A DNA stretch of 64,000 bases from an uncultured Eubacteriales bacterium. Its GTDB lineage: Bacteria; Bacillota; Clostridia; Lachnospirales; CAZQDT01. The stretch covers positions 19,785 through 83,784 of the forward strand of contig CAZWZB010000002.1 in assembly GCA_964638835.1 (NCBI GenBank). The letters are read 5' to 3'. Under the pieces are notes generated by a model that saw only the letters and a program-made list of their open reading frames with translations, had not been told where the DNA came from and ran no database searches. Position numbers and translations under genes: made by a program. This document shows, in pieces, positions 12,353-39,981 of this stretch; position 1 is the first letter of the stretch; each line of letters opens with the position of its first letter.

Positions 12353-12421
12353 TGATACACAACCAAATTAAGAATAATGATATTTGTTTACATTATTATT
12401 GTTCAATAGAATAATTTATAA

Positions 12422-12451: not shown

Positions 12452-12483
12452 GTTGTAATAAAAAATAGAAGGGAGATAAACTT

Positions 12484-14492: not shown

Positions 14493-14496
14493 AATT

Positions 14497-14524
14497 AAAA
14501 CCACCAGTTACGCTGGTGGTTTTA
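14497..14524. terminator. Bidirectional terminator between convergent genes
   Basis: AAAACCACCAG-ttacg-CTGGTGGTTTT. Confidence 0.7.
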
Positions 14525-14551
14525 ATTTTATTATAAGTATCAGTAATAATC

Positions 14552-14812
14552 TTATTTTGATAATTTATCAATAATTTGCATAATTTCTTCAATTTTCTTT
14601 CTTTCTTTATCATCTAATACTTCACTAACACAATGCTCTAAATGAGCATTAAGTATATCTTTATTTATATTTTTTAAAATAGCTATAGTAGCCATAAGTT
14701 GATTAGAAATATCTATACAATAACGGTTTTCATCAACCATTTTAATAATTCCATCAACCTGCCCTCTAGCAGTTTTTAAAAGTCGAGTAGTTTTGTCTTT
14801 GTCTGCTTTCAT
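14552..14812 (-). CDS. csoR: CsoR-family metal-sensing repressor
   Basis: '[24 protein letters not shown]...AHLEHCV' carries the C-H-C ligand pattern of CsoR/RcnR. ATGA overlap with the copA stop. Confidence 0.85.
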
Positions 14813-17115: not shown

Positions 17116-17135
17116 AATATCACCTCTTAATATTA

Positions 17136-17162
17136 ATACCTACACCCCTGAGGGAGTGTTAT
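17136..17162 (-). promoter_or_regulatory. Candidate CsoR operator upstream of copA
   Basis: ATACCTACACCCCTGAGGGAGTGTTAT is a GC-cored pseudo-palindrome (CCC-ctga-GGG) 20-45 nt upstream of the copA start. It resembles C/G-tract CsoR operators. Confidence 0.4.
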
Positions 17163-17290
17163 TAGTATATAAAAAAAATTACTTTCTGTCAAGTGATTAA
17201 TAATTAAATTTTAAGAGTGGTTATTTAAAGATATATAAAAAAATATTTGAGGGTGTTTACTATAGAATGATTCAAAAATAATTGTAGAGA

Positions 17291-17352
17291 AATGTAGGGG
17301 CGACCTGCGGTCGCCCTGTTTTTTTTAGGACGTTTTCGCACACCCCTACATT
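17291..17352 (+). repeat. Second copy of the GC-rich palindrome, with its right arm displaced
   Basis: AATGTAGGGGCGACC-tgc-GGTCGCCC, then TGTTTTTTTTAGGACGTTTTCGCACA, then CCCCTACATT. It shares the core TAGGGGCGACC...GGTCGCCC with 12308-12346. Confidence 0.75.
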
Positions 17353-17420
17353 CAATAATAATTTAAATTTACTTTTTATATTAAATTATAAAAATATTAT
17401 TCTTTACTTAACACTCTCAA

Positions 17421-17697
17421 ATATTTTTAAATATTCTTAAAACTTCGTCAAATAATTTTATTTTATTTATATTCTTTGGTTAACCCTGTAATTTTCAAGC
17501 TTTAAAATCACCTATTCCTTTTACACTATTTTTTAATATACATTTTAATTCCTTATTTAAGAACTGCGAATTACTTGTAAAATCAATAAAAATAAAATAA
17601 TATTTGAGTTCAAAATCTCTTTACACTTGCGTTGCAAGTGTAAAGAGATTTTGAACGTAATTTTATAAAAACCTATCTACATGTAATCACTCTCAAA
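17421..17697. repeat. Dispersed ~280-nt intergenic repeat, copy B
   Basis: See copy A. The hairpin at 17611-17653 plus the following 25 nt (68 nt in all) are identical to copy C. Confidence 0.85.
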
Positions 17698-17788
17698 ATT
17701 TTTGAAATATCTATATTTTTGTGTTATAATTATATTAAGTCAAATCATCTTAATAAAAATGTAATTGTAAAATAGGAGTGATTATAAA

Positions 17789-17989
17789 ATGAAAAAAATA
17801 CAATATATAAAAATGTGGGCAATTAGTTTAATTATAATATCTTTGATATCAATTATTATTGCATTATGCAACATGATGGGAATAACTATTACTGATGTAA
17901 TTATTAGAATTTTAGGCTGCATTGAGATTATTTCCCTACCATTTTTCGTATTTAGTTCTGTAAAAGTATTATCTATAAAAAAGAAATAA
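17789..17989 (+). CDS. Small two-TM membrane protein (hypothetical)
   Basis: 66 aa, AGGAGTG RBS, two hydrophobic helices, followed by a terminator at 18001-18028. Confidence 0.4.
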   Translation: MKKIQYIKMWAISLIIISLISIIIALCNMMGITITDVIIRILGCIEIISLPFFVFSSVKVLSIKKK

Positions 17990-18000
17990 TCTCATAAACA

Positions 18001-18028
18001 AAAGGACGGTTGAATGCCGTCCTTTTTA
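18001..18028 (+). terminator. Intrinsic terminator
   Basis: AAAGGACGG-ttgaatg-CCGTCCTTTTT. Confidence 0.7.
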
Positions 18029-18089
18029 ATTTTATCTTAATGGCTGTTTAAATAAATATTAAAAACTGCACTTAAAAATTAAATATTCG

Positions 18090-18118
18090 TTGACAAAATA
18101 TTTTGCTTTGTGTAGAAT
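18090..18118 (+). promoter_or_regulatory. Near-consensus sigma-A promoter for the P-type ATPase
   Basis: TTGACA (18090-18095), 17-nt spacer ending in TG, TAGAAT (18113-18118). It leaves an AT-rich leader of about 190 nt. Confidence 0.6.
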
Positions 18119-18312
18119 TAGAAAATAAAATGTTAGTTTTTAAAAAATATACGTTACTTTTATAAATAATTAATTTTATTTTATACTTGTAGAATTGTAT
18201 TTAAATTACCAAAGTAAATAAGTATACTTGTTAAAATATTTGTAAAGAATATATTAGTATTTATACTTAATTTAAAACTACATTTAGATTAATGGAAGGT
18301 GTGTTAAATTTT

Positions 18313-20958
18313 ATGAAAGTGGGTTTAAACGATAGGGAAGTAGTAGAACAGAGGCAGAAGTATGGTTCTAATATGCTAAGCGAAGTTAAATCTGAAAGTT
18401 TTTGGGACAAATTAAAAGGCAACTTTGGTGACCCAATGATAAAAATTCTTTGTGTAGCTCTTGCTATAAATGTTGTATTTGCTTTTCTTGGTCAAACGGA
18501 GTGGTATGAACCTGTTGGAATTGCTGTAGCTGTTATACTTGCAACATTTGTATCAACATTTTCTGAGTATAGGAATGAAAATGCTTTTCAAAAATTACAA
18601 GAAGAAGCTTCTAAAATTAAAGTTAAAGCTCATCGTAATGGTGATATTACAGAGATTGCTATCGAAGATGTTGTTGTGGAAGATTGTATTTTACTTCAAT
18701 CTGGTGATAAAATACCTGCTGATGGTATTTTAATTGAAGGTAGTATAAAAGTTGACCAATCTGTATTAAATGGCGAAAGCAAAGAAGCTACTAAAAAAGC
18801 AATACCTAAAGATTATGTAGAAGAAAATACAGCAATGGACTTTTTGAATGAATATAAAGTTTTTCGTGGAACTATAGTTTGTTCTGGTAATGCTACTATG
18901 AAAGTTACTACTGTAGGTGATAAATCAGTATATGGTAAAATTGCTAGTGAACTACAAATTAATGATGAAAGAGATTCTCCTCTTAAAGTAAAATTAGGGA
19001 AACTTGCAGAACAAATAAGTAAATTTGGGTACATAGGTGGTTTATCAATTGCAATTGCATTTTTACTACAAAAAATTGTAATTCACAATAGTTTTGATAT
19101 GTCACTAATTGTACAATATTGTTCAAATTGGACTAATATAGTAAAAGATATTGTTGATGCAATAATCCTTGCAGTAATAATTATTGTTATGGCAGTTCCT
19201 GAAGGACTACCACTTATGATTGCAATAGTTTCTTCTTTGAATATGGGTAAAATGTTAAAAGACAATGTTCTTGTTCGTAAAATTGCAGGAATAGAAACAG
19301 CAGGTAGTTTAAATATACTTTTTAGTGATAAGACAGGAACCATTACAAAAGGACAATTAGAAGCAGTTGTATTTGTAGATGGGGAAGGTAAAAACCACAA
19401 CAAATACTCAGATATTAAAGTTGGGCTTAGAAAAATACTGTCACTTAGTATACAAGAAAATACAAATGCTGTAATCACCCATGAAAAAGGAAACAGAAAA
19501 ATAATTGGTGGTAATGCTACTGAAAGAGCAGTAGTTGGTTTTATTACTGACTCAGAAAATAGTATTAATGTAAAGAAAGGTGTTTCTATTCCATTTAATA
19601 GCGAAAATAAATATTCTGCTACTTACGTTTATGGTGATTATAACTTTACGCTTATTAAGGGAGCTCCTGAAAAAATTATTTCAAAATGTACAAGTTATTT
19701 TGATTTAGATGGTAATAAGCAACAAGTTTCAAATTTTAATGAGCTTGAAAAGCAAATTGATATTTTAGCTAATAGAGCAATTAGAGTTTTAGCAATTGCT
19801 GTTACAGATAAAGAACTTGATGAAAATTCATTACCAGATGGTGAATGGACTTTAGTTGGAGTTTTAGGAATAAGAGATGAAGTAAGACCAGAATCTATTA
19901 CAGCTATTTCAGAAGTTCAAAATGCTGGGGTTCAAGTAGTTATGATAACTGGAGATAGAAAAGATACAGCAGTTGCAATTGCAAAAGAAGCAGGTTTATT
20001 AAAAAATTCAGATGACATTGTTTTAACATCTGATGAACTGCAAGAAATACCAGATGAAAAATTAAAAACTATGTTATCTAAAATACGAGTAATTTCAAGA
20101 GCTTTACCAAGTGATAAAAGTAGACTTGTTAGGGTTGCTCAAGAAAACAATTTAGTAGTTGGTATGACAGGTGATGGCGTAAATGACTCACCAGCACTTA
20201 AAAAAGCAGATGTTGGTTTTGCTATGGGTGGAGGAACAGAAGTTGCAAAAGAAGCAAGCGATATCGTTATAATGGATGATAACTTTAGCTCTATTGACAA
20301 AGCTATTTTATATGGAAGAACTATTTTTAATAGTATACGTAAATTTATAATATTCCAATTAACAATAAATGTTTCAGCGGTTCTTGTTTCATTTATATCA
20401 CCATTAGTGGGTATAGAACATCCTTTAACTATAACTCAAATTTTATGGATTAACTTAGTTATGGATACTTTAGCAGCATTAGCTTTTGGTGGAGAGCCGG
20501 CATTAAAAAGATTTATGCATGAAAAACCAAAACGTCGTGATGAAAATATAGTAAGTAGTTATATGTGGGGTGCCATATTAACAGGTGGTATATGGATTTT
20601 AATATTAAGTATGTTTATGTTACTTTCACCATTTATTAAAACAATATTTAGAGCAAGTTCTGATAATGAATATTTATTAACTGGATATTTTACATTCTTT
20701 ATATTTGCAGCAGTATTTAATGCTTTTAATGCTAGAACAGATAGTATTAATATTTTTGATAACATTAATAAAAATACTGGTTTTATAAAGATAATTTTAA
20801 TAATTATTGTTGTTCAAGTTATTTTAACTCAAATTGGTGGAGCAGTATTAAGATGTTATGGTCTTGTTTTAAATGAATGGATTTTAGTAATTTTAATGGG
20901 TATTACAATTATCCCAATTGATTTAATAAGAAAATTCTTTCAAAGAAAAAAAAGTTAA
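18313..20958 (+). CDS. P2-type cation-transporting ATPase, probably calcium-translocating (PMCA/SERCA-like)
   Basis: 'DKTGTITKG', M4 motif 'VPEGLPLMIAIV', 'TGDGVNDSPALKKADVGFAMG', ten predicted TM helices. I prefer the ATG at 18313, because GGAAGGTG lies upstream and the track start at 18292 falls inside that RBS. Confidence 0.8.
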   Translation: MKVGLNDREVVEQRQKYGSNMLSEVKSESFWDKLKGNFGDPMIKILCVALAINVVFAFLGQTEWYEPVGIAVAVILATFVSTFSEYRNENAFQKLQEEASKIKVKAHRNGDITEIAIEDVVVEDCILLQSGDKIPADGILIEGSIKVDQSVLNGESKEATKKAIPKDYVEENTAMDFLNEYKVFRGTIVCSGNATMKVTTVGDKSVYGKIASELQINDERDSPLKVKLGKLAEQISKFGYIGGLSIAIAFLLQKIVIHNSFDMSLIVQYCSNWTNIVKDIVDAIILAVIIIVMAVPEGLPLMIAIVSSLNMGKMLKDNVLVRKIAGIETAGSLNILFSDKTGTITKGQLEAVVFVDGEGKNHNKYSDIKVGLRKILSLSIQENTNAVITHEKGNRKIIGGNATERAVVGFITDSENSINVKKGVSIPFNSENKYSATYVYGDYNFTLIKGAPEKIISKCTSYFDLDGNKQQVSNFNELEKQIDILANRAIRVLAIAVTDKELDENSLPDGEWTLVGVLGIRDEVRPESITAISEVQNAGVQVVMITGDRKDTAVAIAKEAGLLKNSDDIVLTSDELQEIPDEKLKTMLSKIRVISRALPSDKSRLVRVAQENNLVVGMTGDGVNDSPALKKADVGFAMGGGTEVAKEASDIVIMDDNFSSIDKAILYGRTIFNSIRKFIIFQLTINVSAVLVSFISPLVGIEHPLTITQILWINLVMDTLAALAFGGEPALKRFMHEKPKRRDENIVSSYMWGAILTGGIWILILSMFMLLSPFIKTIFRASSDNEYLLTGYFTFFIFAAVFNAFNARTDSINIFDNINKNTGFIKIILIIIVVQVILTQIGGAVLRCYGLVLNEWILVILMGITIIPIDLIRKFFQRKKS

Positions 20959-20973
20959 TAAAATAAAATTCAA

Positions 20974-21010
20974 ATTTCGCACTTCATTTTGGAGTGCGAA
21001 ATTCATTTTT
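20974..21010 (+). terminator. Terminator after the ATPase gene (CGCACT...AGTGCG hairpin family)
   Basis: ATTTCGCACT-tcattttgg-AGTGCGAAAT followed by TCATTTTT. Confidence 0.7.
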
Positions 21011-21061
21011 ATTTAAATTAATAAATCCAAGAGTAAATTAATAAAAAATATCTAAAAAACA

Positions 21062-21098
21062 GTTACACTTTTTGAAAAAGTGTAACTGAAAATTGAAG
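21062..21098 (+). other. Hairpin + AAAATTGAA motif (H1), left of the terD array
   Basis: GTTACACTTTTT-g-AAAAAGTGTAAC followed by TGAAAATTGAAG. Related to 25407-25444 and 25508-25546. Confidence 0.7.
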
Positions 21099-21193
21099 CT
21101 ATGGATAATAAATTATTTTATATATATGATTGACAATTAATTTGAATTATATGAATAGAGTTGCACTTTTTTTAATAGAATTGCATATGTTAC

Positions 21194-21221
21194 TTGTTTT
21201 TTTATTTTACATTCTTATAAT
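21194..21221 (+). promoter_or_regulatory. Promoter of terD copy 1
   Basis: TTGTTT (21194-21199), 16-nt spacer, TATAAT (21216-21221). Homologous to the promoters of copies 2 and 3. Confidence 0.5.
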
Positions 21222-21299
21222 AAAATTTATAGTAACTAAAATTTTTAATAATAAAATATTTTTAAAAATTAATTCAAATAATGAAGGGAGAAATTTAAA

Positions 21300-21881
21300 A
21301 TGGCTGTTAATTTAAAAAAGGGGCAGAAAGTAGATTTAACAAAAACAAATCCGGGTTTAACTAAATTAATTGTTGGATTAGGTTGGGACTTAAACAAATA
21401 TGATGGTGGTTTTGATTTCGATTTAGATGTTTCGGTTTTTTTATTATCTGAAACAGGTAAAGTTTTAAGCGATAGTGATTTTATATTTTATAATAACAAA
21501 AAGCACCCAAGTGATTCTGTTATTTATCATGGTGATGATTTAACAGGTGAAGGTGATGGTGATGATGAAATAGTGACTGTTGATTTATCAAAAGTACCTC
21601 CTAATATTTCAAAAATAAGTTTTACTGTTACAATTAATGAAGCTGACACTAGAAAACAAAACTTTGGTATGGTTTCTAATGCTTATATTCATGTATTAAA
21701 TGAAGATAAAAAAGAAGAACTTATAACATATGATTTAGATGAAGATTTTTCAATAGAAACAGCAGTTATTATTGCTGAATTATATAGAAATGGCTCCGAA
21801 TGGAAGTTTAATGCTATAGGTAGTGGTTTTGAAGGTGGTTTGGCTGCTCTTTGTAATAATTTTGGTATATCAACTAATTAG
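21300..21881 (+). CDS. TerD-domain stress protein, paralogue 1
   Basis: '[12 protein letters not shown]', 'GLGWD', 'DFDLD', '[13 protein letters not shown]', '[11 protein letters not shown]'. Confidence 0.9.
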
Positions 21882-21925
21882 TTATATACTTAAAATTTAA
21901 TATTTTTAAACAATATATATATTAC

Positions 21926-21953
21926 TTGTATTTTTATTTTAAAATGATATAAT
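21926..21953 (+). promoter_or_regulatory. Promoter of terD copy 2
   Basis: TTGTAT (21926-21931), 16-nt spacer, extended -10 TGATATAAT (TATAAT at 21948-21953). Confidence 0.55.
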
Positions 21954-21993
21954 AAAATTGTAATAATTAAATTTATTCAAAGGAGAGATACAA

Positions 21994-22575
21994 ATGGCTA
22001 TTAGCTTACAAAAAGGACAAAAAGTAGATTTAACAAAAACAAATCCGGGTTTAACTAAATTAACTATTGGTTTAGGCTGGGATATAAATAAATATGATGG
22101 TGGTTTTGATTTCGATTTAGATGCTTCTGTTTTTTTATTATCTGAAACAGGCAAAGTTTCAAGTGAAGCTGATTTTGTATTTTATAATAATAAAGAACAT
22201 TTAAGTGGTTCTGTTATTTATCAAGGAGATAATTTAACAGGTTTAGGCGATGGTGATGATGAGGTTGTTAATGTTGACTTATCAAAAGTACCTGCTAACA
22301 TTTCAAAAATAAATTTTACAGTTACAATTAATGAAGCTAATACTAGAAAACAAAATTTTGGTATGGTTTCTAATGCTTATATTCGTGTTGTAGATGAAAC
22401 TAAAAATGAAGAACTTATACGTTATGATTTAGGTGAAGATTTTTCAATAGAAACAGCAGTTATTATTGCTGAATTATATAGAAATGGTTCTGAATGGAAA
22501 TTTAATGCTATAGGTAGTGGTTTTGAGGGTGGTTTAGCTGCTCTTTGTAACAATTTTGGTATATCAACTAATTAA
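21994..22575 (+). CDS. TerD-domain stress protein, paralogue 2
   Basis: Same hallmarks as paralogue 1. The last 46 residues are identical to paralogue 1, although the DNA differs at synonymous sites. Confidence 0.9.
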
Positions 22576-22592
22576 TATAAATTAATTATATA

Positions 22593-22624
22593 TTGCTTGT
22601 TTTTTTACCTTAAAATGATATAAT
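22593..22624 (+). promoter_or_regulatory. Promoter of terD copy 3
   Basis: TTGCTTGTTT region plus extended -10 TGATATAAT (TATAAT at 22619-22624). The -35 spacing is ambiguous. Confidence 0.45.
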
Positions 22625-22667
22625 AAAGTTGTAATAACTAAACTTATTTTATAAAGGAGAAATACAA

Positions 22668-23246
22668 ATGGCTATTAGTTTACAAAAAGGACAAAAAGTA
22701 GATTTAACAAAAACAAATCCTGGACTAGCTAAATTAATTATTGGTTTAGGCTGGGATACAAATAAATATGATGGTGGCTTTGATTTTGACTTAGATGCAG
22801 CAGCTTTTTTACTTGGTGAAAATACTAAAGTTTCAACTGAAGCTGATTTTATATTTTATAATAATAAAGAACATTCAAGTGCTTCTGTTATTCATCAAGG
22901 AGATAACTTAACAGGTTTAGGTGATGGTGACGATGAAATAATATTAATTGATTTATCAAAAGTACCTGCAAATATTCATAAAATAGACTTTACTGTAACA
23001 ATTCATGAAGCTGATTCTAGAAAACAAAATTTTGGTATGATTTCTAATGCTTATATTCGTGTTATAGATGAAGCAAAAAACGAAGAACTTTTACGCTATG
23101 ATTTAGGTGAAGATTTTTCTGTAGAAACAGCAGTTGTTGTTGGGGAATTATATAGAAATGGCTCTGAGTGGAAATTTAATGCTATAGGTAGTGGTTTTCA
23201 AGGTGGCTTAGCAGCTCTTTGTAATAATTTTGGTATTCAAATTTAA
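22668..23246 (+). CDS. TerD-domain stress protein, paralogue 3
   Basis: '[12 protein letters not shown]', 'DFDLD', '[13 protein letters not shown]', '[11 protein letters not shown]'. Confidence 0.9.
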
Positions 23247-23256
23247 TAATCTTTTT

Positions 23257-23285
23257 AAGGAACGCTATTAGCGTTCCTTATCTAT
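23257..23285 (+). terminator. Weak hairpin after terD copy 3
   Basis: AAGGAACGC-tatta-GCGTTCCTT. The T-run is poor. Confidence 0.4.
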
Positions 23286-23343
23286 TTAACATAATATAAG
23301 TAAAATTTTGGAAGTTTGATTAAATTTATGAGGTGGGTATTTT

Positions 23344-24030
23344 ATGAGTTACGAAATATTATACGAAGGTGCATTTCCTATTATTAAATATAATTTACAA
23401 AAAGGAGAACAATTAAAAGCAGAATCTGATGCAATGGTTGCTATGTCAGGTACACTTGATGTAACAGGTGGAGTTGAGGGTGGATTTCTTCGTGGACTAA
23501 CTCGAATGTTATCAGGTGAAAATTTTTTCTTTCAATATATTACAGCATCACGTGGTAATGGTGAAGTTTTGTTAGCTCATGCATTACCTGGTGGTATATT
23601 AGATATAGAACTTGATGGCAGCTATGGTTTAAATATTCAAAAAGATGGTTTTTTAGCTGCTACTTCCGGTATTGAAATTGATACTAAAATGCAAAATTTA
23701 ATGCAAGGTATATTTTCAAGAGAAGGTCTTTTTATATTAAAAGCTTCTGGAAAAGGAACAATATTTGTTAGTAGCTATGGAGCAATACACCCTATTAATT
23801 TAGAACAGGGTGAAGAATTTATTGTTGATAATGGGCATTTAGTTGCTTGGGCTGACTATATGGAGTATAAAATAGAAAAAGCGTCTAATGGTTGGATATC
23901 AAGTTTTATGTCAGGAGAATGTTTAGTTTGTAGATTTAGAGGACCTGGTGTTGTATTAATACAAACAAGGAATCCAAATGGACTTAAAGGTTGGTTAATG
24001 AAATTAGGTTTTTCTTTAAATAATAAATAA
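23344..24030 (+). CDS. AIM24 / TIGR00266 (DUF124) family protein
   Basis: 'LQKGEQLKAESDAMVAMSG..', 'SGENFFFQ', 'GEVLLAHALPGGI', 'FLAATSGIE', 'GLFILKASGKGTIFVSSYGAI', 'VDNGHLVAW'. The repetitive beta-rich pattern is typical of AIM24. It is a recurrent partner of TerD clusters. Confidence 0.8.
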   Translation: MSYEILYEGAFPIIKYNLQKGEQLKAESDAMVAMSGTLDVTGGVEGGFLRGLTRMLSGENFFFQYITASRGNGEVLLAHALPGGILDIELDGSYGLNIQKDGFLAATSGIEIDTKMQNLMQGIFSREGLFILKASGKGTIFVSSYGAIHPINLEQGEEFIVDNGHLVAWADYMEYKIEKASNGWISSFMSGECLVCRFRGPGVVLIQTRNPNGLKGWLMKLGFSLNNK

Positions 24031-24044
24031 TTAAGGAGTTTTTT

Positions 24045-24668
24045 ATGTCAGTAAATTTACAAAAAGGACAAAAAGTGGACTTAACAAAAGGAAATTCAAG
24101 TTTAAAAAATTTAATAATTGGACTAGGGTGGAATAACAATAAAGAAACAAATAGCCAAAAAAAAGGTTTTTTTGCTTCAGTTTTTTCATCTGATAATTAT
24201 GATTTTGACTGTGATTCATCTGTATTTTTATGTGATACTAATGGTAAAATAGCTAATAATGAAGATATAATTTATTTTGGTAGATTAAAACATTCAACAG
24301 GTTGCGTACAACATATGGGTGATAATTTAACTGGTTCAGATAGCAATAATACTAAAGATGATGAACAAATCCATATTAAATTACTTGAAGTGCCACAAAA
24401 CTATAGTAAACTTGTTTTTGTAGCTAATATATATAATGCTATCAAAAGAAAACAAGATTTTGGAATGATTAGTAGTGCATTTATTAGGATAGTTGATGGT
24501 GATACTAATAAAGAACTTTGTAGATATAATTTAACTGAAAGCTATGCCGGAAAAATAGCAATGATTTTTGGTGAGGTATATCGACATAATAATGAATGGA
24601 AATTTCAAGCAATAGGTGAAGGAACAAGTGATGAGAGTGTGTCTGATATGGCAAAAAGATATAAATAA
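24045..24668 (+). CDS. Divergent TerD-domain protein, paralogue 4
   Basis: '[12 protein letters not shown]', 'GLGWN', 'DFDCD', 'GDNLTGSDSNNTKDDE', 'EWKFQAIGEG'. It has an extra ~20-aa insert after GLGWN and a degenerate acidic loop. Confidence 0.8.
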   Translation: MSVNLQKGQKVDLTKGNSSLKNLIIGLGWNNNKETNSQKKGFFASVFSSDNYDFDCDSSVFLCDTNGKIANNEDIIYFGRLKHSTGCVQHMGDNLTGSDSNNTKDDEQIHIKLLEVPQNYSKLVFVANIYNAIKRKQDFGMISSAFIRIVDGDTNKELCRYNLTESYAGKIAMIFGEVYRHNNEWKFQAIGEGTSDESVSDMAKRYK

Positions 24669-24793
24669 AATTAATATTTAGAAATAACTTTGGTAAGATA
24701 ATTACTTATTATGAATAATATAAAGTTGAAATTTTGTACAAACTCTATTTATACATTTTTTTACTTTATTAAATATACAAATAGGAGGAATTA

Positions 24794-25381
24794 ATGATGG
24801 GTGTAAATTTATCAAAAGGACAAAGAGTAAGTTTAGATAAGTCAATGAAAATGGCATTAATAGGTTTAGGTTGGGATACTAACCAGTATGATGGTGGATG
24901 TGATTTCGATTTAGATGCATGTGCCTTTTTAGTTGGTCAAAACGGTAAAGTATCTAATGATGATGATTTTATATTTTATAATAATTTAACTTCAAGAAAT
25001 GAAGCAGTTATTCATACAGGTGATAATTTAACAGGCGAAGGTGAAGGCGATGACGAAATTATTTTAATTAATTTTGAAAAAGTGCCAGCAGATGTACAAA
25101 AAATTGCAATTACTGTTACTATTCATGAAGCAATGACACGTAGACAAAATTTTGGTATGGTTAAAAACGCTTATGTAAGAGTTGCTAAAATGCAAAGTGA
25201 AAATGATACAATTGGTGTTGAAGCGTTACGTTATGATTTAGGTGAAGATTTTTCTGTAGAAACAGCAATCGTTGTTTGTGAAATTTATAAATACGGTAGT
25301 GAATGGAAATTTAGTGCTGTAGGTTCAGGATATCAGGGTGGACTCAGTTCACTATGCCAAAGCTTTGGAGTTAATGTATAA
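24794..25381 (+). CDS. TerD-domain stress protein, paralogue 5
   Basis: '[10 protein letters not shown]', 'GLGWD', 'DFDLD', '[13 protein letters not shown]', '[11 protein letters not shown]'. It has its own AGGAGG RBS. Confidence 0.88.
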
Positions 25382-25406
25382 GTGTTTTATAGTTTATTAA
25401 AAATAT

Positions 25407-25444
25407 GTTGACACTTTTTAAAAAGTATCAACAAAAATTCAAGG
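25407..25444 (+). other. Hairpin + AAAATTCAA motif (H2)
   Basis: GTTGACACTTTTT-a-AAAAGTATCAAC followed by AAAAATTCAAGG. Confidence 0.7.
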
Positions 25445-25507
25445 CCTATAAAATCCCAATTAATATGATAAATTCAAGAAAAAATTAATAAAATATATGT
25501 AAAAAAT

Positions 25508-25546
25508 CTTGACACTTTTTTAAAAGTGTCAAGAAAAATTCAAATC
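25508..25546 (+). other. Hairpin + AAAATTCAA motif (H3)
   Basis: CTTGACACTTTTTT-AAAAGTGTCAAG followed by AAAAATTCAAATC, 101 nt after H2. Confidence 0.7.
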
Positions 25547-25597
25547 AACTTAAAAGAATCTAAATTAGATTTGCAAACAAAAGAAAGGAATTCATAT

Positions 25598-26404
25598 ATG
25601 AAAAACAAATTGATGAGTTTAAAAGTAGACTTTGCTTTTAAAGAAATAATGAATGATGAAATAGTGAGAAATAGTTTTATATCTGCTGTATTAAAAATAC
25701 CAATGGAAGATATTAAATCCACACAAATTTTAAATACATATTTGAGAAAAGAACATATAGAAGATAAACAAGGAATATTAGATGTAAGAGTAACTTTAAA
25801 CAATATGGAAATAGATATAGAAATACAAGTTGAACCTTTTAAACATTGGGAAGATAGAACTTTATTTTATACTTCAAAAATGTATATTGAATCGATAGAA
25901 GCAGGAGATAGTTATAATGTATTAAAAAAGATAGTAAATATAAGTATATTGGATTTTAATTTATTAAAAGAAGAAAATTTCCATAATTCATTCCATATAC
26001 GAAATGATGAAAGTCATACAATTTATACAGATAAGATGGAGTGGCATACAATCGAATTACCTAAAATACCAAAAAACACAAATACAATAAATGATTTATT
26101 AGAATTATGGGCAAGTTTTATACAAAACTCTGAAAATGAGGAGGTCGTTCAAGTGTTAGCTAAAAAAAGTGAATATATAGACACTGCATATAATGTGTTG
26201 CAAAAAATATCTACTGATAAAGAAAAAAGAATGGAATATGATGCACGACAAAAAGCAATTTACGACCAGAACACCTTAAAGATACAACATAAAGAGGAAG
26301 GCGGAAAAGAAAAAGCATTAAAATTAGGATTACTTATTGAACAAATTTCTGAAATAACAGAATTAACTATAGAAGAAGTAGAAGCTTTAAAAATAAATAA
26401 CTAA
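25598..26404 (+). mobile_element. Rpn-family recombination-promoting nuclease / putative transposase (PD-(D/E)XK, TIGR01784/YhgA-like)
   Basis: N-terminal 'LKVDFAFKEIMNDE..' and the 'GILDVRV...MEIDIEIQV' D...ExQ/K core. The C-terminal tail is 'ELTIEEVEALK'. I moved the start to the ATG at 25598 (AAAGGAA RBS), because the track GTG at 25526 lies inside hairpin H3. Confidence 0.8.
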
Positions 26405-26439
26405 TAAACTTTAAAGTTATCGAAAATAAAGGAGATGTT

Positions 26440-26835
26440 CAAATGTCATTGCAAAAAATATCTTAGGATAAACAAAAAAAGATGGAAGAAGATGCAAGAC
26501 TTAAAGCTTTTTATGATTTTAATACTTTAAAAATACAATATAAAGAAGAAGGTTATATAGTAGGTGCAGCAATTGCTGTAGGTGAAGCAATCATTAGGTG
26601 TAAAGGTGAAGAAATAGAATTTACTTTAGGTGATACTTTAGGTGAAGAAATAGAATTTACTTTAGGTGATACTTTAGGTGAAGAAATAGAATTTATTTTA
26701 AGAGAAATGAATTCAGAAGTCATTAAAAATTTTCTTAATTTATTAAATGAGTTAAACATATCTGAGCTAGACACCTTAGCTTCAGAGTTCAAATTAAACC
26801 AAAAAGAAATAGAAGCTTTAAAAGAATTAATGTAA
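26440..26835 (+). pseudogene. Decayed duplicate of the Rpn-gene 3' end
   Basis: 'MSLQKIS*DKQKKMEEDARLKAFYDFNTLKIQYKEEG' (in-frame TAG at 26464-26466) parallels 'VLQKISTDKEKRMEYDARQKAIYDQNTLKIQHKEEG' in the intact gene. It ends '..NQKEIEALKELM', compared with 'TIEEVEALKINN'. Confidence 0.6.
26605..26700 (+). repeat. 36-nt tandem repeat (about 2.6 copies) inside the Rpn fragment
   Basis: GGTGAAGAAATAGAATTTACTTTAGGTGATACTTTA occurs twice perfectly plus one partial copy. It encodes GEEIEFTLGDTL. Confidence 0.9.
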
Positions 26836-26951
26836 AAATTTATCACAATATTGCCTTTAATCATAAAGAGAGTATTCAAGTCGTTAGGAAATTAAAAGAA
26901 TACTTTCTTTAATTTTAATATTTAGTTTTTAAAAGAAGGACAGGTTTTATA

Positions 26952-27968
26952 ATGAAATATGACTTAGAAAATTTATATTTACAAGGAATAGAGTGGAATA
27001 AAAATTCCAATAAAGAAATATTACAATATGCAATAGGTGCTTTATTATATACTCCAGCTACTAATAAAAGTATAGTAGATAAAACAATTCAAAATTTAAA
27101 ATCAATAGCACTTTGTCTTGAAGATGCTATAATGGAAAATTTGGAGTATGCTGAAGAAGTACTATCTAATAGCATTTCTAAAATATATAACAATTTATCT
27201 CAAAATAAAATTTCAATTAATGAGTTACCTTTAATTTTTATTAGAATTAGAAATGTAGAACAATTAAAAAGAATATTTAATAAATTAAATTCTTTTAAAG
27301 AAGTATTAACTGGTTTTATAATACCTAAATTTAATTCTAAAAATGCAAAAGAATACTTGAATGAATTTGAAATTATTTTAAATAAAACAAACAATATTTA
27401 TATTATGCCAATAATAGAGAGTGATAATATAATACATATTGAAACTCGAATTGACGAATTAATTAAAATTCAGAACATATTAAAACCAATATCAAATTAT
27501 GTTTTAAATATAAGAGTTGGTGGAAATGACTTTTGTAATTATTATGGATTTAGGAGAAATATATCACAAACCATATATGATATAAATGTTGTATCAAATG
27601 TACTTACAGATATTATAAATGTTTTTGGAAGAGATTATATAGTTTCAGCACCAGTATGGGAATACTTTGAAGATAGTAAAATTAAAACAAATTGGGCTGA
27701 GGGATTGAAAAGAGAATTAACTTTAGACAAGTTAAATGGTTTTATTGGTAAAACTTGTATTCATCCTTCACAACTTAAGGCTATACAAAATTCATTGATT
27801 GTAAATTATAATGATTATCAAGATGCGAAAAATATTTTGGGGTGGAAAGATGATATTTTAGGCGTTCAAAAAGGAAGTAATGGAAGAATGAATGAAGTTA
27901 AAGCTCATAAAAATTGGGCTGAAAAAACAATAAATCTAGCAAAAATTTATGGAGTGGAAAATTTATGA
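26952..27968 (+). CDS. HpcH/HpaI-aldolase / citrate-lyase-beta-like C-C lyase (Ter-linked type)
   Basis: 338-aa TIM-barrel-sized protein and first gene of the Ter-linked operon. 'ALCLEDAI' and 'IRVGGNDF' blocks are consistent with the CitE/HpcH fold. The assignment rests largely on context plus these blocks. Confidence 0.6.
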   Translation: MKYDLENLYLQGIEWNKNSNKEILQYAIGALLYTPATNKSIVDKTIQNLKSIALCLEDAIMENLEYAEEVLSNSISKIYNNLSQNKISINELPLIFIRIRNVEQLKRIFNKLNSFKEVLTGFIIPKFNSKNAKEYLNEFEIILNKTNNIYIMPIIESDNIIHIETRIDELIKIQNILKPISNYVLNIRVGGNDFCNYYGFRRNISQTIYDINVVSNVLTDIINVFGRDYIVSAPVWEYFEDSKIKTNWAEGLKRELTLDKLNGFIGKTCIHPSQLKAIQNSLIVNYNDYQDAKNILGWKDDILGVQKGSNGRMNEVKAHKNWAEKTINLAKIYGVENL

Positions 27969-28981
27969 AAAGAATAGTAAGAGTTTGGTTTAATCATTGG
28001 TTTAGTTCAGCATATCACATTATTAATCTGTTAAAACAAGATGAAAATATTAATTTTCATGTTATAGGTACAAATCAAAACATTAATTCAGTAATAAAAT
28101 TAGCTTGTGATGAGTGGTATGAAGAACCTGTATTTGAAACAGATGAAGAATATATAGAATATTGTATTAATTTTTGTAAAACAAATCAAGTAGAAGTTTT
28201 TGTACCAAGAAGAAGAATGATTGCAGTTTGTAAAAATTTAAACTTATTTAAAGAATTAAATGTAAAAGTTCTTGTTGACAATAACTATGAAAAGTTATGT
28301 ATATTAAATGATAAAGAAAAAACTTATAACTTATTTGAAAAGTTAAATATAAATGTAATTCCTGAAAGATATATAATTGATAATGTAGAAGATTTTTGTA
28401 AAGCTTATAAGTTAATTACTGCTAACTTTGAACGTGCATGTATTAAAATTACAAATGATGAAGGTGCAGTTAGTTTTAGAGTAATTGATGATAGTATAGA
28501 AGGTTATAAAGGTCTAAGAAGAGATTTAGGCTCAAAAATTACTTTTGAATATGCTAAAAAAATTTTAAGTGAACAAAAAATTTTTGAAAATATTATGGTA
28601 ATGCCTTATTTAACAGGAATAGAAGCAAGTATTGATTGTTTAAAAACAAATAGTGGATTAATTATTGTACCAAGGTTAAAAACTGGTGGTAGAGTTTCTG
28701 AAATAGTGTATGATAATAAATTAATTGAGTTATGTAATGAATTTTTTGAAAAGATTAGTTTAAATAATCCTTGTAATATACAGTTTAAATATTATGGTGA
28801 AAATCCATTTTTATTAGAAATAAATACAAGGATGTCAGGTGGTATCCCATACTCTTGTTTAGGAGCTAATGTTAATATTCCTAATATAGCAATAAATCAA
28901 CTTTTAGGAATTAATAAACCATGGGAAATTAATAAAATCTCAAGAAAGGTTGCTTATATTGAAATGCCAATATTAGTATAA
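27965..28981 (+). CDS. ATP-grasp enzyme (Ter-linked type)
   Basis: 4-nt overlap with the upstream gene. 'PFLLEINTRMSGG' is the ATP-grasp E-x-N Mg/ATP motif. The size and the 'CIKITNDEGAVSFRVI' central domain fit. Confidence 0.7.
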   Translation: MKRIVRVWFNHWFSSAYHIINLLKQDENINFHVIGTNQNINSVIKLACDEWYEEPVFETDEEYIEYCINFCKTNQVEVFVPRRRMIAVCKNLNLFKELNVKVLVDNNYEKLCILNDKEKTYNLFEKLNINVIPERYIIDNVEDFCKAYKLITANFERACIKITNDEGAVSFRVIDDSIEGYKGLRRDLGSKITFEYAKKILSEQKIFENIMVMPYLTGIEASIDCLKTNSGLIIVPRLKTGGRVSEIVYDNKLIELCNEFFEKISLNNPCNIQFKYYGENPFLLEINTRMSGGIPYSCLGANVNIPNIAINQLLGINKPWEINKISRKVAYIEMPILV

Positions 28982-28987
28982 AATATT

Positions 28988-30118
28988 ATGAAGATAATTG
29001 AGAATAAAACTAAATTTGAAGTATCAGATATAATACAAATAGGCAAGCGTTACAATAATAATAAAAGAACTCATTTATTAATAAACCCAATGCAAGCTAA
29101 ACATATTCCTGTATTACCAAGTAAACCACTTGAATTATTTTCAGCACTTGGTGAACTTTTAGTTAAAGATTTTAAAGATAAAAATAATTTTGTAATTGGA
29201 TTTGCAGAAACAGCTACTGCAATTTCAGCACAAGTTGCAACTATGTTAGGTGAAAATACTTTTTATGTTCATACAACACGAGAGAAAATGAATACATTAA
29301 ATATTGCCAAATTTGAAGAAGAACATAGCCATGCAGTAGAACAAAATTTGTTTTGTAATAATCCATATGAAACAATATTAAAGTCAGATACAATTATTTT
29401 TATTGAAGACGAAATTACTACAGGAAAAACAATAGTAAATTTTATAAATGCTTTAAAAAAGAATAATTATATAAAATCACATAAAATTGTTGTAGCTTCA
29501 ATCATAAATGCAATGGATAATTTAAATTTATTTAAAAATATGAATATAGAATGCAAATATTTATTAAAAATAAAATATGAACATGATAATAATAGTTTTT
29601 GTAATTTAACTTTAAACCAACACCAACAAGTTTTAGATAAAGAAATAAAATTTAACAATATCATTATTAATGGAAAATTAGAACCTCGTGTATGTGTTAG
29701 GGCAAATGATTATAAAAATTCATGTGAAAAATTTACTAAACTTCTACTTTCAACTTATAATTTGGAAGAATTTAAAAATAAAAGTGTATTAGTATTAGGA
29801 ACAGAAGAATTTATGTATGCATCTATTTTGGTAGCTAATAAAATACTGGACTATACAAACAATGTTAAAGTTCATTCAACTACAAGAAGTCCAATTACAG
29901 CTTATAAAGAAAAAGTTTACCCAATCAATAACTATTCTAAATTAGTAAGTTTTTATTGTGATGATAGAGAAACATTTTTATATAATTTAACTAAATATGA
30001 TAAAGTTTTAGTAATAACAGATGCAAATAATGGATTAAATTTAGGAGTTCAAAGTTTAACAAGACAACTAAGCTTATATGGTTGTGAAAATATTGATATA
30101 ATTAGGTGGGTTGAATAA
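28988..30118 (+). CDS. Phosphoribosyltransferase-domain protein with a C-terminal extension (PRTase_2+TRSP-like)
   Basis: 'DTIIFIEDEITTGKTIVNFI' is the classical PRPP-binding loop. A C-terminal domain of about 170 aa follows. Confidence 0.7.
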   Translation: MKIIENKTKFEVSDIIQIGKRYNNNKRTHLLINPMQAKHIPVLPSKPLELFSALGELLVKDFKDKNNFVIGFAETATAISAQVATMLGENTFYVHTTREKMNTLNIAKFEEEHSHAVEQNLFCNNPYETILKSDTIIFIEDEITTGKTIVNFINALKKNNYIKSHKIVVASIINAMDNLNLFKNMNIECKYLLKIKYEHDNNSFCNLTLNQHQQVLDKEIKFNNIIINGKLEPRVCVRANDYKNSCEKFTKLLLSTYNLEEFKNKSVLVLGTEEFMYASILVANKILDYTNNVKVHSTTRSPITAYKEKVYPINNYSKLVSFYCDDRETFLYNLTKYDKVLVITDANNGLNLGVQSLTRQLSLYGCENIDIIRWVE

Positions 30119-31168
30119 ATGCAATCATCATATTTAAAAGAAGATGTAGAAATATTATTAAAAGATATTACTAATATGGTAAAGCCACTTTCTACAGAAG
30201 AAAGAGAAAAAAGAATACAACAAGGTGTTCATTATTCTGAAATGTTACCTATTGAGTATAAACCATCTGATGAATATAAAAAAATATATAATGATTCATT
30301 AATAGAAAATGCAGATATTATGGCTGATGCAGTATCAATAGTATCAGAAAAAATATTTAAACTTAAACAAGAACAACTCGTATTAATATCTTTAGCTCGT
30401 GCAGGAATACCAATAGGTATTTTAATAAAAAGATATTTAAAAAACAAATATAAGATAAATATTCCTCACTATGCTATATCTATAATTAGAGGTAGAGGGA
30501 TTGACAATGTAGCAATGGAATATATATTAAATCTTCATCCTGCTAGCTCATTACAATTTGTAGATGGTTGGATAGGAAAAGGTGCAATTTTAAATGAATT
30601 GAAAAAAGAATTAAATAACTATGAAAATATTTCAAATGAAATGGCTGTAGTATCAGACCCAGCAGGAGTTACTAAATTATATGGAACTCAAGAAGATTTT
30701 TTAATTCCAAGTTCATGTTTAAATGCTACAGTATCAGGTTTAATAAGTAGAACATTTCTTAATAAAGAAATTATTTTTGAAAATGATTTTCATGGAGCAG
30801 CATTTTATAAAGAATTATTAAACGAAGATGTTTCTTATGAATTTATTAACATTGTAGAAAGCAAATTTAATTATAATATACACTATAATGAAGTATCTAA
30901 TAATCAGCAAGGATTAAAAGAAGTTGAAGGTATAGCAAAAAAATTTAATATAAAAAATATTAACTTTGTTAAACCGGGAATTGGTGAAACAACGAGAGTA
31001 TTATTAAGGCGAGTACCTCATTTAGTGCTTGTTAAAAACTTAAATGATACTAAGAATATTAAACATATATTAAGATTATCAAAAGAAAAACAAGTAAAGG
31101 TAATTGAATATCCACTTATAAATTATAAAACTTGTGGTTTAATTAAAGATTTGAATGCAGATGTGTAA
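30119..31168 (+). CDS. PELOTA-like + PRTase_1-like protein (annotated in databases as the 'StiP' family)
   Basis: Abuts the upstream stop (TAAATG). 'ISLARAGIPIGIL', 'FVDGWIGKGAI' and 'AVVSDPAG' blocks are as I recall them from the Ter-linked PRTase family. Context is strong. Confidence 0.55.
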   Translation: MQSSYLKEDVEILLKDITNMVKPLSTEEREKRIQQGVHYSEMLPIEYKPSDEYKKIYNDSLIENADIMADAVSIVSEKIFKLKQEQLVLISLARAGIPIGILIKRYLKNKYKINIPHYAISIIRGRGIDNVAMEYILNLHPASSLQFVDGWIGKGAILNELKKELNNYENISNEMAVVSDPAGVTKLYGTQEDFLIPSSCLNATVSGLISRTFLNKEIIFENDFHGAAFYKELLNEDVSYEFINIVESKFNYNIHYNEVSNNQQGLKEVEGIAKKFNIKNINFVKPGIGETTRVLLRRVPHLVLVKNLNDTKNIKHILRLSKEKQVKVIEYPLINYKTCGLIKDLNADV

Positions 31169-31178
31169 GAAAGGTTGA

Positions 31179-31805
31179 ATGCTAATGAATAAAATAATAT
31201 TAATGTCTGTTATATTATTATTTAATATAACATTTACTACAGGTGATAAAGTATCAAATATAAATACATTTTTAACAAAACAAAACTTAAACAATAATAT
31301 TGAACTTATCAAAGAAACTACTGCAAATATTCCACAATCTAATATTGTATTAAATACAGATAATAAAAACTATTACACAGATATCAATTTAACTTCTTAT
31401 GCAAAAAAATTAGATGTTCAAAATGATAACGAAAATTATTTTTCATTTAATAGAATTGATATAGTTGATAATAATGGTTATGAACATCAAGCAGTTGTGG
31501 TTATTTGTGATGGTTCAAATGATTTTACAAAACCATTTAATGAATTTGTTGAAAACTTAAAAATTGCTTATTCGGACGATTATGGTTACATTGTAGGATA
31601 TTTAGATTTAGTACGTGATAATCGTATAAGAACTTATTCTACAATGATAATTGATTTCTTTAAAATACAAAATGTTTCTATAACTGATAAAAATGATAAA
31701 GTATATAATGCAGTTGTTATTGCTATTGATGGCACTGAAGATTTTACAAAAAGTTATGAAGAACTTTTCTCAGAATTTTTCACTCTATATAAATCTAAAA
31801 AATAA
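31179..31805 (+). CDS. Exported/anchored protein with an internal duplication (unknown function)
   Basis: N-terminal hydrophobic helix 'IILMSVILLFNITF'. Two related modules: '..YEHQAVVVICDGSNDFTKPFNEFVENL' and '..VYNAVVIAIDGTEDFTKSYEELFSEF'. Confidence 0.5.
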   Translation: MLMNKIILMSVILLFNITFTTGDKVSNINTFLTKQNLNNNIELIKETTANIPQSNIVLNTDNKNYYTDINLTSYAKKLDVQNDNENYFSFNRIDIVDNNGYEHQAVVVICDGSNDFTKPFNEFVENLKIAYSDDYGYIVGYLDLVRDNRIRTYSTMIIDFFKIQNVSITDKNDKVYNAVVIAIDGTEDFTKSYEELFSEFFTLYKSKK

Positions 31806-31827
31806 TTTATTTAATAAAGGAGAAGCT

Positions 31828-32589
31828 ATGATACTTTTTGCATCAGACTTAGACAACACTCTTATATTTTCATATAAAAAAGCAATTGAAAATTCAATAT
31901 GTGTTGAAGTAAAAGATGATAAAGAATTATCTTTTATGACTTATAAAGCATATAACACATTACAAGATATAATAAATAAATTTGTCTTTGTACCTATAAC
32001 TACACGTTCTATTGAACAATATAAAAGAATTAAACTTTTAAAAAATAACTATCCAAAATATGCTTTAGTATGTAATGGAGGAGTACTATTAGTTAATAAT
32101 GAAGTAGATTCAAAATGGCATAAAGAAACATTAGACTTAATTTCTATAAGTATTTCAGAGTTAAATAAAGGGATAAAACTTTTAGATAATGATAAAAACA
32201 TTTATTTAAAACCAAGATGTGTTGATGATGTATTTGTATTTGCTAAAACATCTAACATAGAAGAAACAACTAACATTTTAAATAATAACTTAGACTTAAA
32301 TAAAGTAACTATTAAAAATATTCTCGATAAAATTTACATATTACCTAAAAATTTAACTAAAGGAAATGCTTTAGACAGATTAAAAAATCTATTAGAAATT
32401 GATTATACTATATGTTCAGGTGATAGTGATTTTGATATATCTATGCTACAAAAAGCAGATATAGCTATTATACCAAAAGAAAATGATATTTACAGTTATT
32501 TAAAACATCATAAAAACTTATTAGTCAGTAGTTTAGAAGGTATGTATTTTTCAGAAGAAATATTTTCAATACTATCAAAGTTATACTAA
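31828..32589 (+). CDS. HAD-superfamily (IIB-like) phosphatase
   Basis: 'FASDLDNTLIF' is motif I (DxDxT) and 'GDSDFDISML' is motif IV. I moved the start to the ATG at 31828 (AAAGGAGAAG RBS). The track start at 31693 overlaps the previous gene. Confidence 0.8.
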   Translation: MILFASDLDNTLIFSYKKAIENSICVEVKDDKELSFMTYKAYNTLQDIINKFVFVPITTRSIEQYKRIKLLKNNYPKYALVCNGGVLLVNNEVDSKWHKETLDLISISISELNKGIKLLDNDKNIYLKPRCVDDVFVFAKTSNIEETTNILNNNLDLNKVTIKNILDKIYILPKNLTKGNALDRLKNLLEIDYTICSGDSDFDISMLQKADIAIIPKENDIYSYLKHHKNLLVSSLEGMYFSEEIFSILSKLY

Positions 32590-32596
32590 AAAAAGT

Positions 32597-32631
32597 AAAC
32601 CCTAGATTGTATAATTACAGTCTAGGGTTTT
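32597..32631. terminator. Bidirectional terminator between the HAD gene and gdhA
   Basis: AAACCCTAGA-ttgtataattacag-TCTAGGGTTTT. Confidence 0.7.
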
Positions 32632-32636
32632 TAGTT

Positions 32637-39968: not shown

Positions 39969-39981
39969 ATTTTATACTCCT

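Follow-up and report, generated by a model that had tools for sequence, protein, structure and literature searches.

The 64-kb stretch of DNA analysed here (the window, from contig CAZWZB010000002.1 of an uncultured Eubacteriales bacterium) carries at 18.3-32.6 kb a group of genes that we read, with somewhat more confidence than doubt, as a clostridial-type Ter stress-response or defence cluster, composed of a PMCA-type Ca2+ pump, an array of TerD proteins with an AIM24 protein, and a module of five enzymes, which would act by the mechanism proposed below. The initial annotation of this DNA had described an 11.5-kb island with a soluble, TerD-only array and a six-gene metabolite module, lying next to a Ca2+-type pump and without the usual Ter partners. 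When every plausible open reading frame (ORF) of at least about 80 amino acids (aa) in the window was scanned against Pfam, the ORFs and domains that it named (five TerD, AIM24, Rpn, lyase, ATP-grasp, phosphoribosyltransferases (PRTases) and HAD) were all found at their positions. The main changes concern the pump, the meaning of the absent partners and the status of the locus as an island.

The gene at 18292..20958 on the forward strand encodes a protein with all P-type ATPase Pfam domains, which scores 629.7 bits against TIGR01517, an NCBIfam equivalog profile with a cut-off of 507 bits. In an alignment of pumps from five Ter clusters, the phosphorylation motif D346-K-T-G-T, P303-E-G-L-P with its glutamate in the fourth transmembrane helix, N721 and D725 of the sixth transmembrane helix, and TGDGVND are invariant. 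The equivalog score and these motifs point to a PMCA-type (P2B) Ca2+ pump, with a predicted transport specificity.

The surroundings of related clusters were surveyed in GTDB representative genomes. The lyase of the enzyme module was chosen as anchor because it is central, so that ±10 kb spans the whole cluster. Eighty loci were kept, from Clostridia metagenome-assembled genomes (MAGs), Ruminococcus, Oscillospiraceae, Lachnospiraceae, Selenomonadaceae and Streptococcus sanguinis/cristatus, and the 44 loci with full ±10 kb flanks were the basis of all absence counts. ORFs were classed with profiles seeded from the window, from TelA/YceG-containing loci and from the annotated E. coli IncHI2 ter cluster. 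Of the 80 loci, 47 have a full-length pump orthologue (43-75% identical), as do 33 of the 44 with full flanks. The gap between pump and nearest TerD gene has a median of 100 nucleotides (nt), and is 300 nt or less in 44 of 48 gaps. Across the 80 loci the closest pumps reach 75% identity, compared with 55% for the closest lyase and 66% for the closest StiP, the PRTase-type protein of the module. AIM24 rarely occurs without the pump (13 of 15 full-flank AIM24 loci have both), and the order pump, TerD, AIM24, TerD(n), lyase, (ATP-grasp), PRT2, StiP, HAD is seen again in Anaerobacterium chartisolvens and in many Clostridia MAGs. The pump is a conserved, tightly linked member of Firmicute Ter clusters and not a mere neighbour, and it is the obvious candidate for the supposedly missing membrane partner. 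The initial annotation left the pump outside the system, and its picture of a soluble, TerD-only array cannot be kept.

The pump and TerD genes also occur together away from the rest of the cluster. Scanning IMG/VR with the pump alignment gave four full-length matches, on contigs of 67-355 kb (L093, L094, L095 and L096), and at about 10000-15600 in each of them the pump is followed directly by two to four TerD genes. Other Ter genes, TelA, TerC and the enzyme module included, were not detected on these four contigs. Their viral status is the IMG/VR classification, and a PHROGs scan of the flanks of L095 returned one methyltransferase and one amidase only. On large phage-classified contigs, pump and TerD seem to move together as one unit. 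The whole clostridial-type cluster is carried on an extrachromosomal element in Alkaliphilus sp. B6464, whose 436-kb plasmid pB6464 has the lyase, a PRTase, StiP, HAD, two TerDs, AIM24 and a P-type ATPase at 10678-21741; many genes in this megaplasmid region are hypothetical or phage-like (thymidine kinase, RecD-like helicase, NucS). We found no accessible paper that states a link between the pump and TerD, and the comparative-genomics study of Ter systems from 2012 may already describe the pump. The sole paper found to mention both is a study of Jug phages, which reports TerD genes and a Ca2+ P-type ATPase in the same phages and treats them separately (PMC12880540).

TerB (PF05099), TerC, TelA, vWA and TerY_C have no Pfam match in the 64 kb, although six ORFs match nothing in Pfam and so count as uncharacterised, not as proven to be free of these domains. 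Neither YceG_bac (PF14266) nor TelA (PF05816) is matched by any window ORF, and the combination of TerY vWA, PP2C and Ser/Thr kinase (the TerY-P triad) is not encoded in the window. The scan thus agrees with the initial annotation that no TerB, TerC, TelA or vWA partner is present. What does not hold is the claim that this absence is unusual. With the E. coli seeds, TerC and TerB were each found in none of the 44 full-flank loci; TelA was found in 25, YceG in 24 and AIM24 in 15, and TerD without TelA, TerC and TerB in 18. As a control, the same E. coli TerC and TerB seeds find the Pseudomonas proteins of P. putida locus L090 (550 and 118 bits). Due to the fact that this control covers Proteobacteria only, seven independently Pfam-labelled neighbourhoods were inspected as well, and none of these has TerB or TerC. 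Inside the cluster spans of 86 loci there are only 39 unassigned ORFs of at least 120 aa, mostly in few loci, which leaves little room for a hidden partner. Since TerC and TerB are at 0/44 and TerD stands without all three partners in 18/44, a TerD array with the enzyme module and without TerB, TerC or TelA is a standard clostridial form. The gene set is conserved in this form, with near-identical layouts in two of the relatives (L098 and L002, see below).

In 8-10 of the 44 relatives, genes for PP2C, a kinase and TerY-C are located upstream of the pump; they are not in the window. The position that they often fill corresponds to the 1.2-kb gap at 17116-18291, between the divergent Cu-type ATPase gene and the Ca2+ pump. 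Long ORFs are missing from this gap, in which there are three terminator-like hairpins (at 17297, at 17610 with a 20-bp stem, and at 18000) and a very hydrophobic 66-aa ORF at 17789-17989.

Downstream of the pump, five TerD ORFs on the forward strand match PF02342 over the full 187-position model, with E-values from 2e-68 to 2e-84. TerD1 (21300..21881, 8e-82) is of the canonical TerD/TerE type; TerD2 (21994..22575, 6e-84; 85% identical to TerD1) and TerD3 (22668..23246, 2e-84) are canonical tandem duplicates; TerD4 (24045..24668, 2e-68) is by alignment a TerZ-like paralogue; and TerD5 (24794..25381, 1e-73) is canonical. The AIM24/TIGR00266 gene lies among them at 23344..24030 on the same strand (Pfam AIM24 6e-70; TIGR00266 179 bits, cut-off 96.6), and the nearest solved structures of its product, 1pg6 and 1yox, are both hypothetical proteins from structural genomics. 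TerD3 matches the structure of the Ca2+-binding Klebsiella TerD (2kxt) with an E-value of 5e-65. Of the hallmarks that the initial annotation ascribed to all five ORFs, the acidic GDNLTG.GDGDDE loop is present in four of them. The exception is TerD4, which has an insert at the TerZ position, a degenerate acidic loop GDNLTGSDSNNTKDDE and a divergent C-terminus.

TerD1-3 share 76-85% mutual identity, and the best match of each is the one TerD that comes first in the syntenic relatives; they are thus a lineage-specific triplication of that gene. TerD4 is the positional orthologue of the relatives' 211-215-aa TerD located after AIM24, and TerD5 the orthologue of their 194-aa TerD (72-74% identical). 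The next two TerDs of the relatives (191 aa, and 414 aa of TerA-like type) have no counterpart in the window, where the Rpn gene and orf117 occupy their place; both were lost at the Rpn site. A remnant of the 414-aa TerD around the Rpn insertion was considered and rejected, as tblastn finds the five intact TerDs only. In the relatives a TerD of about 400-450 aa stands directly upstream of the lyase (L002 6447-7691, L098 5169-6413, and equivalents); it has a TerA-like architecture with an N-terminal part of about 245 aa without Pfam match, and is not in the window.

The enzyme module is encoded on the forward strand in one tightly packed operon, in which all five enzyme families exceed their own Pfam cut-offs. 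The first gene (26952..27968) encodes an HpcH/CitE-like TIM-barrel C-C bond lyase (PF15617, 7e-103), with weak similarity in the PDB to structures of CLYBL, malyl-CoA lyase and CitE. It is followed by a Ter-associated ATP-grasp ligase (27965..28981; PF15632 (ATPgrasp_Ter), 1e-35), for which a solved structural relative was not found and whose gene is present in 22 of the 80 related loci. Next come a PRTase_2 + TRSP phosphoribosyltransferase with a canonical phosphoribosyl pyrophosphate (PRPP) loop IIFIEDEITTGKT (PRT2, 28988..30118; PF15609 5e-41, PF12500 2e-21), and StiP (the former PRTase_1) fused to PELOTA_1, with a predicted PRTase fold (30119..31168; PF11202 2e-102, PF15608 2e-29). The last gene (31828..32589; Hydrolase_3/S6PP, TIGR01484/TIGR00099) encodes an HAD-IIB phosphatase of the Cof/S6PP-like type. 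Its start is most likely at 31828 (253 aa) rather than at 31693, as judged from the gene call of 253 aa in an independent assembly and from the point at which the profile matches begin. As initially described, the lyase and ATP-grasp genes overlap by 4 nt, and the gaps that follow are 0-22 nt (6, 0, 10 and 22 nt in order). The six-gene module keeps five canonical enzymes; the sixth gene (31179-31805) is discussed below as a lineage-specific ORFan.

At least 7,974 homologues share the architecture of the StiP/PELOTA protein. NCBI annotates it as 'cysteine protease StiP family protein', which conflicts with its predicted fold. Its AlphaFold model (predicted local distance difference test 91.7, predicted template-modelling score (pTM) 0.92) was compared with the PDB by Foldseek, and nearly all top matches were type-I PRTases (HGPRT, OPRT) or the related PyrR/PurR, with zero proteases; the structural scores are weak (best E-value 4.6e-4, template-modelling score at most 0.55 on the target). 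The loop is atypical (FVDGWIGKGA). The modelled fold supports the original PRTase_1 assignment, and catalysis is at most predicted. A role as cysteine protease is unsupported, although the Cys and His residues C200, C339, H117 and H225 are invariant. The name StiP goes back to an Acinetobacter baylyi study cited in PMC11994780, which also cites a stiP mutant of A. baylyi as reportedly tellurite-sensitive.

A model that links Ter proteins to a module for a nucleoside-like metabolite was put forward in 2012 by Anantharaman, Iyer and Aravind, as summarised in PMC11994780 and PMC7824862. The initial annotation tied the locus to that module, and the tie is borne out by the same five enzyme families: C-C_Bond_Lyase, ATPgrasp_Ter, PRTase_2+TRSP, PRTase_1/StiP+PELOTA and HAD. 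The TerD array, the AIM24 neighbour and the conserved neighbourhood are likewise shared with the 2012 systems; PMC5822837 cites the AIM24-containing Ter class as 'group I'. Unlike those systems, the window has neither TerB nor TerC, and its conserved membrane partner is a PMCA-type Ca2+ pump.

The locus is not a member of the classical terZABCDEF operon type, since neither TerB nor TerC occurs in the 64 kb. Compared with the IncHI2/R478-type terZABCDEF + terWXY cluster of E. coli plasmid pABW_A19a (L088), it has the same five enzyme families beside TerD-family genes, with 33% identity between the two StiP proteins, but the plasmid cluster has TerB, TerC, TerA, TerF (vWA), TerW, TerY (vWA), TerY-C, PP2C and kinase, none of which is in the window, while the pump and AIM24 of the window are missing from the plasmid cluster. 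Both proteobacterial plasmid clusters inspected (E. coli IncHI2 and P. putida L090) have TerZ-A-B-C-D-E and the module without the pump. TerB and TerC are present in the Bacillus altitudinis cluster, for which a pump is not listed (PMC11994780).

Firmicute YceG-TelA-TerD clusters (the Bacillus yceCDEFGH type, and the Streptococcus sanguinis, Fusobacterium and Ruminococcus loci L004, L007 and L029) share arrays of three TerDs and the same module with the window, and mostly also carry the same PMCA-type pump. They differ from it in TelA and the large YceG_bac, which the window lacks, and AIM24, which it has, is rarer in TelA-containing loci (5 of 25). The closest syntenic relatives are Anaerobacterium chartisolvens QPJT01000007 (L002) and a metagenome contig (L098), which match the window nearly gene for gene and likewise have no TelA, TerB or TerC; the pump of L002 is 73.5% identical to that of the window, and for StiP the identity is 63-64%. 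Differences are that L002 and L098 have one TerD before AIM24 instead of three, a further two TerDs (one of 191 aa and a TerA-like one of 414 aa) instead of Rpn and orf117, and no orf208; L002 is also without the ATP-grasp gene.

The Rpn-family PD-(D/E)XK nuclease gene (25526..26404, forward strand; PDDEXK_2 8e-44, TIGR01784 134 bits with a cut-off of 52) is found at this position in the window only, and not in the other loci compared. It is probably a lineage-specific insertion that splits the cluster, rather than a Ter component. The next ORF on the same strand, orf117 (26482..26835), has no Pfam match and is a diverged duplicate of the C-terminal tail of Rpn, as indicated by a direct repeat of 104 nt with 78% identity (26198-26301 in the 3′-end of the Rpn gene, and 26449-26552). 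Rpn proteins are anti-phage toxins that are neutralised by their separately translated C-terminal domains (bioRxiv 10.1101/2023.05.02.539157), and for this reason orf117 may be a free-standing RpnS-like antitoxin gene; it may also be a remnant. It holds three copies of a 36-nt tandem repeat. The independent assembly mentioned above (L001, from SRA run SRR10912416) is identical to the window over 8.3 kb save for one fewer copy of this repeat, which could be a real polymorphism or a collapse in short-read assembly.

Inside the enzyme operon, orf208 (31179..31805, forward strand) encodes a signal-peptide protein with two internal repeats and no Pfam match. Besides itself, no relative was found among 5.8e9 proteins. 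An exhaustive search gave nine distant relatives, of which three are the C-terminal and presumably extracellular domains of BlaR1/M56 membrane proteins with lengths of about 780 aa; small secreted proteins are also among the relatives, and the nearest relative lies on an integrase/ParAB element outside any Ter context. These relatives speak against two readings of orf208, as a fragment of YceG and as a conserved seventh component, and both were rejected. We read orf208 as lineage-specific secreted ORFan cargo and not as a sixth enzyme of the module. The window itself encodes a short BlaR1 (895-1890, 331 aa) without sensor domain.

The Ter region is chromosomal and of clostridial type, and it sits amid core housekeeping genes and not in a defence island. 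On the left the flank includes ybeY, cdd, a uracil-DNA-glycosylase-family gene, era, recO, CsoR and the Cu-type P-ATPase, and on the right gdh, an hcp-type prismane protein, hemC/hemD, alr, mazF and rlmH. G+C content is about 25% across the whole window, the Ter block being no different from its flanks. With equal composition, core flanks and no sign of mobility, the designation as an island does not stand; within the 11.5 kb, only the Rpn/orf117 segment looks like an insertion. Further to the right, the minus strand at 38721-47632 encodes an AAA+ ATPase (38721-39968), two large TPR proteins (39982-41580 and 41654-43153) and a 988-aa protein without any Pfam match (44666-47632).

Pattern matching gave terminator-like hairpins 3′ of the pump gene (20973..21003, forward strand, 14-bp stem then T-run), 3′ of TerD3 (23256) and at the end of the enzyme operon (32597..32630, forward strand, 15-bp stem then T-run), the last being common to the convergent gdh gene, as well as promoter-like sites 5′ of the pump (18090) and of TerD1 (21206). 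Together these sequence patterns point to several transcription units instead of a single one. No Rfam family was found in 14-35 kb, where the E-value scan gave sub-threshold chance matches alone. A palindrome, ACACTTTT(1-3 nt)AAAAGTGT, occurs at four sites (7544-7561, 21065-21083, 25411-25428 and 25512-25529), all of them intergenic, against a chance expectation of none. It may be a bidirectional terminator or a repeated regulatory element of the source genome, similar to repetitive extragenic palindromic elements. The copy at 21060-21088, where the initial annotation began its island, was considered as an island operator and rejected, as the motif also lies upstream of ybeY at 7544; due to its recurrence at 25411, 25512 and 7544, it is a genome-wide element and not specific to the island.

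In the mechanism that we propose, damage to the envelope by phage entry, pore-formers or xenobiotics would let Ca2+ or another divalent cation leak into the cell, where the abundant TerD paralogues would bind it through their acidic loops. TerD and AIM24 would then act at the membrane on or alongside the pump, which would restore low cytosolic Ca2+; the pump would thereby take the divalent-cation-exporter role held in proteobacterial and Bacillus clusters by TerC, a role suggested for TerC by its family annotation. In parallel, the module would make a ribonucleoside-like compound, the signal or effector of the response: a PRTase would join a base to PRPP, the HAD enzyme would remove the 5′-phosphate, and the ATP-grasp and lyase would decorate the product. 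In Clostridioides difficile, synthesis of TerD paralogues is induced by stress, namely by metronidazole (PMC6262375), which is consistent with a stress role of TerD.

Several points weigh against this proposal. According to PMC9240799, the 2012 work proposed TerB as the link between TerD/TerC and the metabolite; TerB, the proposed metabolite sensor of that model, was not found, so the connection between metabolite and TerD is unexplained here. TerC was searched for in the 64-kb window, and a gene of its family may lie elsewhere in the genome. The ion specificities of the pump and of the TerDs are predictions from homology. Moreover, both pump and TelA are missing from 7 of the 44 full-flank relatives, so that the cluster does not strictly require the pump, and in the window its own promoter-like and terminator-like signals may mean that it is transcribed separately. 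The cluster may have been impaired when the Rpn gene was inserted and two TerDs were lost, and PADLOC has no model that matches the system, its sole matches being weak ones of PRT2 to the PRTase effectors of type III-A retrons.

A chance juxtaposition of a housekeeping Ca2+ pump, a TerD array and an unrelated metabolic operon could explain why the pump and TerD3 each have a separate hairpin on their 3′ side and why the Rpn insertion parts the TerD array from the operon, but we regard it as hardly credible. The same order is kept across many genera at only 43-75% protein identity, a divergence that argues against copies of one mobile element; TerD lies within 10 kb of the lyase in 43 of the 44 full-flank loci and the pump in 33, and the pump-TerD pair recurs on viral-classified contigs. 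With this survey, chance is effectively refuted, and the co-location of TerD array and module in relatives is upheld. A dedicated anti-phage system of abortive-infection type is a more serious alternative, though in our judgement an unlikely one. Here the module would make a toxic or chain-terminating nucleoside analogue upon infection, and TerD, AIM24 and the pump would do no more than sense the trigger or gate it. Phage inhibition is known from classical ter operons (restated in PMC7824862), TerD/pump sets on phage-classified contigs and on a phage-like megaplasmid are what superinfection exclusion predicts, the inserted Rpn gene encodes an anti-phage toxin, the TerY-C/PP2C/kinase genes of relatives recall the TerY-P defence triad, and PRT2 is weakly similar to the retron effectors. 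Yet the viral-classified contigs have the pump and TerD without the enzyme module, PADLOC gives nothing beyond the weak PRTase matches, the locus stands amid core housekeeping genes rather than in a defence island, and its wide conservation and stable synteny are unlike those of patchy defence systems.

Equally improbable to us is a function in divalent-cation and chemical-stress homeostasis only, in which TerD would buffer Ca2+ (or Mn2+), the pump would export it, and the metabolite of the module would give tolerance to metals or xenobiotics of the tellurite type, with no role in conflict. The metal genes CsoR and Cu-type P-ATPase immediately upstream, the Ca2+-binding fold of TerD, the annotation of the TerC family as metal-homeostasis proteins, the induction of C. 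difficile TerD synthesis by metronidazole (PMC6262375) and the reported tellurite sensitivity of the A. baylyi stiP mutant, as cited in PMC11994780, all fit such a function. It leaves unexplained, on the other hand, why the pump-TerD pair is found on large phages and a phage-like megaplasmid, and why ion homeostasis would need a five-enzyme pathway of nucleoside type.

Within the stress-response reading, a more specific idea is possible, which we put forward tentatively and with more doubt than belief. The pump and the TerD array may be a previously unrecognised two-part module for sensing and extruding Ca2+, with TerD as a calmodulin-like Ca2+ sensor or regulator of the pump, which would replace the TerB/TerC half of classical Ter systems in Clostridia, Streptococcus, Fusobacterium and relatives, the pair being mobile on its own on huge phages and a megaplasmid. 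The likeness to eukaryotic PMCA-calmodulin is a functional analogy only, in that a PMCA-type Ca2+ pump and small soluble proteins that bind Ca2+ are linked at the gene level: the fold of TerD, a beta-sandwich, has no relation to EF-hand calmodulin, an interaction of TerD with the pump is hypothetical, and no autoinhibitory or TerD-binding segment was identified in the pump. If the idea is true, Ca2+ entering through a damaged envelope would be what Ter systems basically respond to when they confer resistance to phages and colicins.

Ter clusters are widespread, occur on clinically important plasmids and pathogen islands, and have long been linked to resistance to tellurite, colicins and phages. 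To our knowledge they have no accepted mechanism and no identified metabolite. The locus is a further case of a Ter system delineated by comparative genomics and biochemically unsolved, and is not itself exceptional; the initial view of a functionally undescribed system was overstated, as this is a described kind of system with unsolved biochemistry. The assumption that TerB and TerC are the usual partners is corrected outside Proteobacteria and Bacilli. The compact clostridial form is more tractable, as its sole membrane component is a pump of a well-understood type with a predictable substrate, Ca2+, and its five-enzyme operon is small enough for heterologous expression. The lead of most use is the conserved unit of Ca2+ pump and TerD, with or without AIM24; through it the Ter problem gains a membrane component that is concrete and can be assayed, and the pump and TerD pair on viral-classified contigs offers its minimal unit.

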